From: Escherichia phage ESCO13
Length of the DNA stretch: 64,000 nucleotides
Sequence record: NC_047770.1
Strand: one strand, 5' to 3'
The notes beneath the pieces were generated by a model that made no database searches, was not told the DNA's origin, and saw only the letters and a list, made by a program, of their open reading frames with translations. This document shows, piece by piece, positions 3,332-27,706 of the stretch. The stretch's first letter is position 1, and each line of letters begins with the position of its first letter. The translations under genes were made by a program, and so were the position numbers.

Positions 3332-4324
3332 TTAAATCTTCTCACTCCACCATTGAGGGTTGTTTAAGTACCATTCAATCGTTGAGTAGAGATCTTGTTC
3401 AAATGTAGAGTTTGCACTCCAACCCAGTTCAGACTCTATTTTAGAAGGATTGATTTCATAACGCAAGTCATGTCCTTTACGATCTTCAACAAAAGTTATC
3501 AAGTTGGAAGAAGGGTAGGTTCCTGCTTCTGGATGTACAGCATCCATGTAGTCACAAACCATATAGATGATCTCCATATTGGTTTTGGGATTACGTGTTC
3601 CAACATTATACGTTTGACCTGGTTCTCCACCTGTTGCCACTTGAAGAATAGCTCGCGCATGATCCTCAACAAAAAGCCAGTCTCGCACCTGATCGCCTTT
3701 ACCATACACCGGAATCTCTTTATTCGTCAAGATACTTGTGATGATTTTTGGGATCAGCTTTTCTGGATGTTGATAAGGTCCAAAGTTATTGGAGCAGTTG
3801 GTTATCACAACAGGTAAACCGTAGGTACGGTACCAAGCTTTCACAAGATGGTCAGATGCTGCCTTAGACGCACTGTACGGGCTTGAAGGGGCATAAGCTG
3901 TCTCTTCGGTAAAGGGAACGCCAGAGTCTGCCATATCGCCGTACACTTCGTCTGTGGAGACATGTACGAACATCTTAAGTTTATTTTTTGGGAGGAGCCT
4001 TGCAGCTTCCAATAAATTGTATGTACCAATAATATTGGAGTCGATGAAAACTCGTGGATTCTTGATAGAATTATCCACATGACTCTCTGCCGCTAAGTGA
4101 ATGATGAAATCGGGATTGCACTCTACTACTAAACTTTTGACCTGGGTTTCGTTTGCCAAATCTGTTATGCTCAGTTTAACGTGAGTGATATCGCCTACAT
4201 TCTCAATATCTGCTGCATAGCCCATCTTATCAACGACAAAAACTTCGTTATTGGGATCTTGACAAAGAGAGCGCACCACGGCACTCCCAATAAAACCAAG
4301 ACCACCTGTTACCAGATAGCGCAT
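3332..4324 (-). CDS. rmlB: dTDP-glucose 4,6-dehydratase
   Basis: 330 aa; [68 protein letters not shown] blocks of RmlB. Confidence 0.95.
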
Positions 4325-26580: not shown

Positions 26581-26853
26581 ACACAACATTAAGAGCACTG
26601 TGATTGATCGTCGTATCCTGTGCACAAGGTCTGCTCGAAAGACAGTGTTCTTAGTATTGTGTTGATCACAAAAAGAGTCACCCGAAACTTGACCGGAGTA
26701 GGGTTGGATGGGGCAAAATGAGAAGCGGCTCTCCCATCGACAGCAACGAAGAATAATATTTGACTTTGGTTTTGTATTATTTTAAGTTAGCTTACCGAAC
26801 GTAGGGCTAGTCACCCAACGGGATACTCGTCACTGTCCCAATCAATAAAAGTC

Positions 26854-26883
26854 TTGACAACAAATAGTAAAATGTAGTATAGT
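26854..26883 (+). promoter_or_regulatory. Candidate internal promoter (TTGACA-18-TATAGT)
   Basis: TTGACAACAAA box then TATAGT, 12 nt before tRNA-Gly. Confidence 0.4.
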
Positions 26884-26894
26884 AAATATATATG

Positions 26895-26968
26895 GCGTTC
26901 TTGGTGTAGCGGTAGCATTCCGTCCTTCCAAGTCGGCGGCACGAGTTCGATCCTCGTAGAACGCTCCA
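26895..26968 (+). tRNA. tRNA-Gly (anticodon TCC)
   Basis: Acceptor GCGTTCT/AGAACGC, anticodon loop CTTCCAA, T-loop TTCGATC, encoded CCA. Confidence 0.75.
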
Positions 26969-27066
26969 AATTATTTAATAAAGGGTTGCCAGAAAACTTT
27001 CTCTTTTACTCATGGTTTTCTCCTTCTCTCACACTTCTTCTGGTTGCCCTTCATTAAATGATTTAT

Positions 27067-27142
27067 TGGTTTGTAGTGTAGTCCGGTAGCACACGACACT
27101 TTGACTGTCGTAGGTTTGGTTCAAATCCAGACAGACCAGCCA
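27067..27142 (+). tRNA. tRNA-Gln (anticodon TTG)
   Basis: Anticodon arm CGACA-CTTTGAC-TGTCG; T-loop TTCAAAT; encoded CCA. Confidence 0.8.
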
Positions 27143-27235
27143 TATAACAAAGGTGAGTCACTACCTTAAGTGTGAAGTTAAAAACGAGGAGCCGCCGAAC
27201 ACTTTCTTTTGCGGTGTACCTTTAGAATGTTATCA

Positions 27236-27312
27236 CGGGACGTAGCACAGCTTGGTAGTGCGCTCGCTTTGGGAGCGAGAGGTCGAGTGTTCGAATCACT
27301 CCGTCCCGACCA
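27236..27312 (+). tRNA. tRNA-Pro (anticodon TGG)
   Basis: Anticodon arm CTCGC-TTTGGGA-GCGAG; T-loop TTCGAAT; encoded CCA. Confidence 0.85.
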
Positions 27313-27318
27313 ATTAAA

Positions 27319-27392
27319 TGTTTCGTAGTTCAATGGTAGAACCCACGACTGATAATCGTGAGACACAAGTTCGATTCTTGTCGAAACAACCA
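27319..27392 (+). tRNA. tRNA-Ile (anticodon GAT)
   Basis: D-arm GTTC-AATGGTA-GAAC, anticodon arm CACGA-CTGATAA-TCGTG, encoded CCA. Confidence 0.85.
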
Positions 27393-27394
27393 GT

Positions 27395-27464
27395 TTCCCG
27401 TTAGACTTACAGGATAAGAGTTCCACAGCTTATTGTGATGCTGGTTCGAATCCAGCACGGGATA
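27395..27464 (+). ncRNA. tRNA-like element with truncated anticodon arm
   Basis: Acceptor with 1-72 T.T mismatch, normal D- and T-arms, but only 16 nt where anticodon arm plus variable loop need about 21; no encoded CCA. Confidence 0.4.
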
Positions 27465-27470
27465 CATAAT

Positions 27471-27549
27471 AGCGGGATAGAGGAGTCTGGTCGTCCTCGC
27501 CAGTTTCATATGCTGGAGATCATCGGTTCAAATCCGATTCCCGCCTCCA
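27471..27549 (+). tRNA. tRNA with anticodon CAT, initiator-like features
   Basis: Anticodon loop TTCATAT; A1.C72 mismatch at acceptor end and A11:U24 pair; T-arm ATCGG-TTCAAAT-CCGAT resembles E. coli tRNA-fMet; encoded CCA. Confidence 0.7.
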
Positions 27550-27664: not shown

Positions 27665-27687
27665 AGCCTCCTTATTGGAGGCTTTTT
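27665..27687 (+). terminator. Rho-independent terminator closing the tRNA cluster
   Basis: 7-bp stem AGCCTCC/GGAGGCT with 5-nt loop followed by TTTT. Confidence 0.7.
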
Positions 27688-27706
27688 GCTATCTATTGAA
27701 TAAAAC

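Follow-up and report, generated by a model that had tools for sequence, protein, structure and literature searches.

The window, the whole 64,000-nt stretch of DNA that was analysed, derives from a phAPEC8-like coliphage (Phapecoctavirus, Stephanstirmvirinae), and its region 25300-28000 matches Escherichia phage vB_EcoM-Ro121c4YLVW at 100% identity and many relatives at ~98%. This region carries a tRNA cluster on the + strand (25537-27549). ARAGORN detects ten tRNAs in it, and two more, a tRNA-Tyr(GUA) at 26235-26319 and a Ser(UGA)-like tRNA at 25923-26009, were recognised with Rfam. Degenerate tRNA-like remnants (26422-26498 and 27395-27466) are also found in the cluster. Near-consensus sigma-70-type promoters lie at 25298, 25885 and 26854, each ahead of a group of tRNAs; the last one (TTGACA-18-TATAGT, 26854..26883, + strand), recognised only by its match to the consensus (11 of 12 positions), would, if used, be the probable start of a Gly-Gln-Pro-Ile-...-Met(initiator-type) transcription unit. 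At the other end, an intrinsic-terminator-like hairpin with a U-run (27665..27690, + strand), located ~115 nt 3' of the tRNA gene that starts at 27471, probably marks the end of the tRNA operon; since this hairpin and U-run follow it, the gene at 27471 seems to close the operon. The same hairpin is also the source of a weak RyhB-like match in Rfam.

The tRNA(CAU) at the 3' end of the cluster (27471-27549, + strand; hereafter the 27471 tRNA) is a real and conserved gene. It is detected by ARAGORN and by the Rfam tRNA model (50 bits, E=7e-9), its RNA folds alone into a cloverleaf in which base 1 is unpaired, and the gene is found at 95% identity or more in ~110 phage records, which shows that it is not a chance match. 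In GenBank, it is labelled simply tRNA-Met (for example in OR062524). The gene comprises a 76-nt body followed by an encoded CCA, and all bases involved in tertiary interactions are conserved. Read directly from 5' to 3', it consists of the acceptor 5' strand AGCGGGA (27471..27477), UA, the D-arm GAGG-AGUCUGGUCGU-CCUC (27480..27498), a single G, the anticodon arm CCAGU-UUCAUAU-GCUGG (27500..27516, with the CAU anticodon at 27507-27509), the variable loop AGAUC, the T-arm AUCGG-UUCAAAU-CCGAU (27522..27538), and the acceptor 3' strand UCCCGCC with the discriminator U73 (27539..27546, U73 being 27546), ahead of the CCA.

In the acceptor stem, A1 (27471) lies opposite C72 (27545) and is unpaired, and this mismatch is followed by G2:C71, C3:G70, G4:C69, G5:C68 and G6:C67. 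A pair at 1:72 is present in every other tRNA of the cluster that was inspected. Three features set the register: U8, the encoded CCA and the position of the T-stem, which abuts the acceptor 3' strand. An acceptor register starting from G27472 was considered and rejected, because it needs an extra base in the 3' strand and displaces both U8 and the CCA end. The A.C opposition at 1-72 and the A11:U24 pair of the D-arm, both proposed in a sequence-only reading of this DNA, can thus be read from the sequence, and so can the resemblance of the T-arm to that of tRNAfMet; E. coli metY has the same T-loop (UUCAAAU) and the same variable loop (AGAUC). The anticodon stem is formed by C27:G43, C28:G42, A29:U41, G30:C40 and U31.G39. 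As had also been pointed out, it therefore does not carry the three G-C pairs of initiator tRNAs (29:41, 30:40 and 31:39); only the middle one, G30:C40, is present. Two further departures had gone unmentioned: position 73, the discriminator, is U where E. coli has A, and in the anticodon loop UUCAUAU, U32 and U38 replace C32 and A38.

Homologues and identity elements of the tRNA

Formyltransferase recognises an unpaired 1:72 as its major determinant, A73, G2:C71, C3:G70 and G4:C69 as minor ones, and in addition R11:Y24 (PMC9976931). The 27471 tRNA combines a CAU anticodon with an unpaired 1:72, G2:C71/C3:G70/G4:C69 and R11:Y24, and lacks A73. None of the features of an elongator tRNA-Met that were looked for (a paired 1:72, Y11:R24, likeness to metT) is found in it.

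We searched 5,426 complete E. coli genomes by BLAST with the 27471 tRNA at a permissive threshold and, among the matches listed, only places annotated as tRNA-Met were found, with a median of 4 places per genome. E. coli has four initiator tRNA genes per genome. The single match that was inspected is metY, between argG and rimP. The elongator gene metT, the reference sequence of which gave a 100% match on check, occupies two places per genome. Structural comparison points in the same direction: over 60 structurally fixed positions, the 27471 tRNA is 68% identical to metY, 47% to metT and 47% to an Ile2-type reference (a prophage tRNA-Ile annotated in RefSeq, ileZ-like), and identity to metY rises to 74% when the anticodon arm is left out.

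Two covariance models were built as surrogates. The first (R1) was made from 50 viral initiator-like tRNAs with the canonical CUCAUAA loop, leaving out metY, tRNAs with a D-arm of the 27471 type and members of the class described below; the second (R2) was made from 50 viral tRNA(CAU) with G:C or C:G at 1:72, that is, elongator-Met and Ile2 types. With these home-made models, which are partly circular for 1:72 and 2:71 because the training tRNAs were sorted by an acceptor-stem rule, the 27471 tRNA scores 65.0 bits against R1 and 49.4 bits against R2; the contributions of the D-arm and the T-arm are independent of that rule. Controls scored 90.7/63.8 (metY), 77.3/57.9 (the tRNA-Met of Pseudomonas phage pf16), 65.4/79.3 (metT) and 69.2/78.9 (ileZ-like tRNA) against R1/R2. 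The margin of the 27471 tRNA in favour of R1 is therefore +15.6 bits, as compared with +19 to +27 bits for canonical initiators.

These results bear directly on the simplest reading of the gene, namely that it encodes an ordinary elongator tRNA-Met, which would add to the host supply for AUG codons. The plain tRNA-Met label in GenBank and the lack of the three G-C pairs would both fit such a function. However, it is very improbable given the mismatch at 1:72 and the A11:U24 pair (features with a background of 2% and 9%, respectively, in other phage tRNAs, see below), the lower identity to metT than to metY, the R2 score 15.6 bits below that of R1, and a number of places per E. coli genome that equals the number of initiator genes and not the two obtained with metT.

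The second CAT tRNA of the window

ARAGORN finds two tRNAs with a CAT anticodon in the window, as had been stated, the 27471 tRNA and a tRNA at 25537-25611 (+ strand). The latter had been described as resembling a lysidine-type tRNA-Ile2, and this assignment holds, as judged from homology and determinants. In E. coli, it is matched best by prophage tRNA-Ile genes (84%), and its identity at structural positions is 85% with the ileZ-like tRNA of an Stx prophage (tRNA-Ile in RefSeq). The ileZ-like gene that was inspected is preceded by a lambdoid antiterminator gene, and two tRNA-Arg genes come after it, in the ileZ-argN-argO arrangement; in the phage, a tRNA-Arg(UCU) directly follows the 25537 tRNA, as in the ileZ arrangement. 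The 25537 tRNA scores 76.4 bits with R2 and 65.4 bits with R1, again with the home-made models, and it carries C4:G69, C29:G41 and A73, which are among the isoleucine determinants of E. coli (PMC9976931).

The possibility that the 27471 tRNA is itself a second tRNA-Ile2, with C34 converted to lysidine and reading AUA, is suggested by its CAU anticodon and by the fact that phages often carry AUA-reading tRNAs. We regard it as barely conceivable, because in the 27471 tRNA the isoleucine determinants A73, C4:G69 and C29:G41 are absent and replaced by U73, G4:C69 and A29:U41, because identity to the ileZ-like tRNA is only 47%, and because these very determinants are found in the Ile2-type tRNA at 25537, with which the phage is already equipped.

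The 1:72 mismatch in close relatives

We compared the 27471 tRNA with 15 close variants from the Stephanstirmvirinae, found in Phapecoctavirus and Justusliebigvirus genomes and in metagenomic contigs. Position 1:72 is mismatched in all 15 (A.C, U.C, C.C or C.U), and opposite C72, position 1 takes each of the three non-pairing bases and never G. Over the same set, the T-stems change by compensation (AUCGG/CCGAU, GUAGG/CCUAC, GCAGG/CCUGC, GUUGG/CCAAC and AUUGG/CCAAU). That the mismatch survives base changes in relatives while the T-stem compensates argues that it is selected and no accident. U73 is also present in most Phapecoctavirus and Justusliebigvirus variants, and a phi92 sublineage has UCCCGUU followed by A73. 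In the more distant relatives phiEa21-4, AS-yj and Sugarland, a weak A1:U72 or U1:A72 pair is found instead of a mismatch.

Altogether, the nearest host homologue, the structural identity, the surrogate covariance models and the persistence of the 1:72 mismatch in relatives support the classification of the 27471 tRNA as initiator-type, which agrees with the initiator-like identity that had been suggested for it.

A class of phage tRNAs that shares the anticodon arm

The exact 17-nt anticodon arm CCAGUUUCAUAUGCUGG also occurs in IMG/VR tRNAs that have quite different acceptor, D and T arms, and all exact-17-mer carriers that were inspected are mismatched at 1:72 (L018 and L027 after correction of a one-base register error of ARAGORN). 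To define a class, we used a pattern that fixes only G30, U31, the UUCAUAU loop, G39 and C40, plus a generic T-loop. This core is therefore invariant by construction, and the grouping is our own and unpublished. The pattern was found in viral contigs at 86 loci, corresponding to 64 distinct tRNAs; class counts leave out five members (L018, L027, L054, L085 and L096) that have either the one-base ARAGORN register error or odd T-arms.

Positions 1:72, 2:71, 3:70, 11:24 and the discriminator lay outside the search pattern. Among 60 well-parsed members, 1:72 is a mismatch in 44, A-U or U-A in 10, G.U in 2, and G:C or C:G in 4, while 2:71 is G:C in 55/60, 3:70 is C:G in 52/60 and the discriminator is A in 49/60. 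The 1:72 mismatch is thus found in 75% of the class (with A-U/U-A in a further 15%) vs 2% (15/747) of the other tRNAs of the same loci, and R11:Y24 in 85% vs 9%. The ~7% of members with G:C or C:G at 1:72 may be elongators, or may have been misplaced by one base by ARAGORN. An alignment of 54 class members has 93% of its structural cells paired and a covariation score of 0.63, compared with 0.16 in shuffled alignments (none of 500 shuffles scored as high). Pair 1:72 is unpaired in 41 of 53 aligned sequences, while every other position of the acceptor stem is base-paired in 98% or more; in the anticodon stem, pairs 27:43, 28:42 and 29:41 covary freely across the class. By its core arm, its initiator-type acceptor and its location within a phage tRNA array, the 27471 tRNA is a member of this class.

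Each locus carries exactly one class tRNA (78 loci), and in 29 of 34 tRNA-rich loci it lies beside one or two other CAT tRNAs, the pattern expected of an initiator alongside elongator Met and Ile2. A general A+T drift was considered as the origin of U32, U38 and U31.G39; this was rejected because such bases are found in only ~5% of the other phage tRNAs of the same loci (U38 in 6%, U31.G39 in 4.5%). We then searched one genome each of 185,579 bacterial and archaeal species with the class pattern and obtained only 35 matches, of which ~22 are real tRNAs. Most of these ~22 sit in 8-kb stretches with 12-28 tRNAs, which is a phage-like array, and one species-genome match (L189) is the 27471 tRNA itself on a contig binned into a MAG. 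So few matches, mostly in phage-like arrays, suggest that cellular genomes essentially do not use this arm and that it is essentially restricted to phages.

Initiator-like tRNAs are also found in phages outside this class. The canonical GG-CUCAUAA-CC arm is present in IMG/VR viral contigs at no fewer than 120 loci and, among the matches listed, 67 of 99 parsed canonical-arm tRNAs have an initiator-like acceptor stem. A D-arm of the 27471 type occurs in 45 viral loci, where it is joined to a graded series of anticodon arms, from three G-C pairs in pf16 through CUGGU-CUCAUAA-GCCGG and CCAGU-UUCAUAA-GCUGG to CCAGU-UUCAUAU-GCUGG. The commonest form in this series is CUGGU-CUCAUAA-GCCGG, which has two G-C pairs and U31.G39. 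Since viral contigs commonly carry such tRNAs, the data do not support the expectation that it would be unusual for a phage to encode one. It is the recurrent, non-canonical and phage-restricted anticodon arm that stands out as unusual, rather than the existence of a phage initiator-like tRNA as such.

The class data also allow two other readings of the gene to be weighed. In the first, the weakening of its initiator signature would let the methionine tRNA be put to two uses, initiation and elongation at AUG, as in animal mitochondria, where a single tRNA-Met serves both. The single initiator G-C pair, U73 and an A.C pair that is able to wobble when protonated fit this idea. So do the weak pairs at 1:72 in phiEa21-4, AS-yj, Sugarland and 15% of the class, and the fact that only two CAT tRNAs are found in the 64,000-nt window, the other one being of the Ile2 type, with no separate elongator tRNA-Met. 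We nevertheless consider dual use unlikely: the close relatives have a true mismatch in 15/15 cases and never a pair, other CAT tRNAs usually accompany the class tRNA in tRNA-rich loci, an elongator tRNA-Met is supplied by the host, and R11:Y24 and G2:C71/C3:G70 are hallmarks of a dedicated initiator.

In the second, the RNA would have no use in translation: the gene could be a decaying pseudogene, or its product could act as a decoy and titrate a host factor with affinity for initiator tRNA (a toxin or Fmt). The presence of degenerate tRNA-like remnants in the cluster and the breach of the three-G-C rule speak for such a reading. Yet decay is hard to reconcile with a perfect cloverleaf, compensatory changes in relatives, an encoded CCA, conserved tertiary-interaction bases and one copy per phage across very diverse phages, and a decoy would be expected to keep the canonical arm that toxins recognise, when it is precisely the arm that has changed. 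The chances of either seem slim to us.

Discussion

We consider it probable that the gene at 27471 encodes a phage initiator-type methionine tRNA that belongs to a widespread and essentially phage-restricted class of variants, acting by the mechanism proposed below. The annotation of the gene as tRNA-Met was already known. Neither its initiator-type identity, as predicted from sequence comparison, nor the phage-restricted class without the three G-C pairs is described in the literature that we searched, the coverage of which is incomplete; we came across only passing annotations of tRNA-fMet. One tRNA-fMet is annotated in the Erwinia jumbo phage pEa_SNUABM_47 (PMC7760394). The class may have gone unrecognised because annotation labels its members simply tRNA-Met.

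In the proposed mechanism, the gene would be transcribed at the end of the tRNA operon, and its RNA would be matured by host enzymes. The identity of methionine tRNAs for MetRS lies chiefly in the CAU anticodon, with A73 as a minor determinant here too, and the host MetRS would charge the phage tRNA with methionine through this anticodon. Host Met-tRNA formyltransferase would then formylate it, given that it carries the unpaired 1:72, G2:C71, C3:G70, G4:C69 and R11:Y24. A non-Watson-Crick 1:72 keeps initiator tRNA off EF-Tu; the mismatch would do the same for the phage tRNA, leaving it for use with IF2 at the ribosomal P site. We infer each of these functions of a formylatable initiator (methionine charging, formylation, EF-Tu exclusion and P-site use) from the presence of all determinants except A73, together with G30:C40.

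Few tRNA features in life are as conserved as the three G-C pairs of the initiator anticodon stem, and their partial loss in the phage tRNA could be taken as an objection. In E. coli, however, G30:C40, and above all G30, was found to be crucial and adequate among the three (Shetty et al. 2017, PMC5389676). The pair that E. coli needs by experiment is the one that the phage tRNA keeps, so that the two missing pairs are no argument against initiator function. A tRNAfMet mutant of the au/GC/gu type sustains E. coli, with poorer growth in minimal medium, and an A-U as the first pair is natural in alpha-proteobacteria and some mycoplasmas (PMC5389676). Because strains of the au/GC/gu type grow less well, the efficiency with which the phage tRNA would initiate on E. 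coli ribosomes is uncertain; its U31.G39 also has the orientation opposite to that of the G31.U39 tested in E. coli.

What could be gained by changing the arm is a more speculative matter. Our preferred hypothesis is that remodelling of the rest of the arm (A29:U41, U31.G39, U32 and U38) would make the tRNA insensitive to factors that recognise the canonical arm, and phage protein synthesis could then keep starting while the host initiator pool is attacked or decays. VapC toxins of Shigella and Salmonella are described as cutting tRNAfMet between A38 and C39 (PMC4105405). Both bases of this site are replaced in the 27471 tRNA, by U38 and G39. Going by the position of the cut, the remodelling may be hypothesised to provide an escape from anticodon-arm nucleases such as VapC-type PIN toxins. 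For other phage tRNAs, changes in the anticodon loop have been put forward as a means of evading the anticodon nucleases of the host (van den Berg et al. 2023, PMC10264068). In its most general form, the idea would be that unrelated phages carry a remodelled initiator that goes unseen by factors, whether of the host or made by a phage, which inspect or destroy the canonical arm, and that they could thereby continue to initiate translation, or gain a private initiation channel, during a shutdown of host initiation; this is conceivable, and we put it forward tentatively, as a conjecture that may well prove wrong.

These observations bear on the debate over why phages carry tRNAs. One published analysis came to the conclusion that tRNA-fMet is generally avoided among the tRNAs that phages encode (van den Berg et al. 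2023, PMC10264068); contrary to this conclusion, our analysis suggests that phages do encode a disguised tRNA-fMet, annotated as plain tRNA-Met. Dozens of unrelated phages carry the same arm solution, and a natural phage initiator-type tRNA that keeps only G30:C40 independently matches the minimal requirement established in the laboratory. If the arm indeed confers toxin resistance or relaxed IF3 proofreading, it would add a new layer of phage-host conflict at translation initiation and provide a ready-made orthogonal initiator scaffold. The question is directly testable, since phAPEC8- and phi92-like coliphages and E. coli are easy to handle.

Among known systems, the closest in the host is E. 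coli tRNAfMet2 (metY), the best host match of the 27471 tRNA. Both have CAU, an unpaired 1:72, the G2-G6/C67-C71 pairs, A11:U24 and G30:C40, in addition to the shared T-loop and variable loop. They differ at the ends of the acceptor stem, which has C1xA72 and A73 in metY but A1xC72, U73 and A7:U66 in the phage tRNA, and in the D-arm, where the phage tRNA has a longer D-loop and a G13:C22 pair in the D-stem. The main difference lies in the anticodon arm, UCGGG-CUCAUAA-CCCGA in metY vs CCAGU-UUCAUAU-GCUGG in the phage tRNA, with the loss of two G-C pairs. In this respect, the phage tRNA resembles initiators with fewer than three G-C pairs, those of alpha-proteobacteria and some mycoplasmas and the au/GC/gu mutant of E. 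coli (PMC5389676), with which it shares A29:U41, G30:C40 and a G/U wobble as the third pair. These initiators are, however, cellular or made in the laboratory and have the CUCAUAA loop and G31.U39, whereas the tRNA described here is phage-borne and has U31.G39, U32 and U38.

Comparison with phage tRNAs completes this picture. By analogy with the tRNAs of van den Berg et al. 2023 (PMC10264068), which have changes at or near the cleavage site, U38 and G39 of the 27471 tRNA would lie at the A38|C39 site of VapC; the class described here was not recognised in that study. Finally, the tRNA-Met of Pseudomonas phage pf16 has a D-arm nearly identical to that of the 27471 tRNA (UAGAGGAG..UGGUCGUCCUCG) and shares its variable loop and T-loop. 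It is also mismatched at 1:72 (A1xA72) but, unlike the 27471 tRNA, it has the three G-C pairs, the CUCAUAA loop and A73. With this D-arm, these loops and this mismatch joined to a canonical arm, the pf16 tRNA argues that the 27471 tRNA belongs to the initiator lineage.

Other CAT-anticodon tRNAs in viral loci

Besides the initiator-like class, defined by the anticodon-arm core G30 U31/UUCAUAU/G39 C40, two further sorts of CAT-anticodon tRNA were found in viral contigs. One, on the minus strand of a phi92-like contig (L020, 8146-8221), has the body of a GAT-type tRNA-Ile and the anticodon arm CUCGA CUCAUAA UCGAG. Its relatives in three other viral loci (L002, L003 and L026) carry the GAT (Ile) anticodon where this contig has CAT; the anticodon has been switched, the rest of the tRNA being identical. 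The other sort is a second recurrent phage type present in several loci (e.g. L012, 1599-1673, and L021, 984-1058), with a GGUGAUG/CAUCACC acceptor, a UUCAUAC anticodon loop (U32 and C38) and a CUCGAAU T-loop in which C replaces U at position 54. Because position 1:72 is paired, this type probably represents a phage variant of elongator Met or of Ile2.

Genomic neighbours and host labels of class members

At 309-385 and 3727-3810, one viral contig (L010) carries a class member whose variable arm is long and a CUA-anticodon (amber suppressor) tRNA, a combination suggestive of a recoded phage. On a second viral contig (L018), a class member (1519-1596) adjoins a tmRNA gene (1685-1972). Among GenBank records labeled 'Campylobacter phage', B15 (MG065650) is up to 99.9% identical to E. 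coli Stephanstirmvirinae phages over the tRNA region, and the initiator-type tRNA is also common to A150 (MG065639) and C3 (MG065656); the Campylobacter host label of all three looks doubtful.

Other members of the window's tRNA cluster

All features of the cluster described here lie on the plus strand. ARAGORN made no call in the window at either a tRNA-Tyr(GUA) (26235-26319; Rfam, 39 bits), which is annotated in GenBank record OR062524, or a Ser(UGA)-like tRNA (25923-26009), matched only by the tRNA-Sec model at 35.7 bits, below that model's threshold. The 86-nt tRNA called Asn (anticodon GTT, 26329-26414) shows a long variable arm and G73, the build of a class-II (Ser/Leu/Tyr-like) body, here with an Asn anticodon. 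It is kept across phi92-like loci and also seen in L011 (7568-7652).

Two tRNA-like remnants, at 27395-27466 and 26422-26498 (folding z-scores of -3.2 and -2.8, in listed order), each combine a good T-arm with an acceptor stem of 7 bp but lack a proper D-arm or anticodon arm. Neither was called by ARAGORN or Rfam; degenerate tRNAs and stable tRNA-like RNAs are both possible readings.

Finally, at 25537-25688 the Ile2-type tRNA is directly followed by tRNA-Arg(UCU), a gene order resembling that of ileZ-argN-argO, the cluster of rare-codon tRNAs in Stx and lambdoid prophages.
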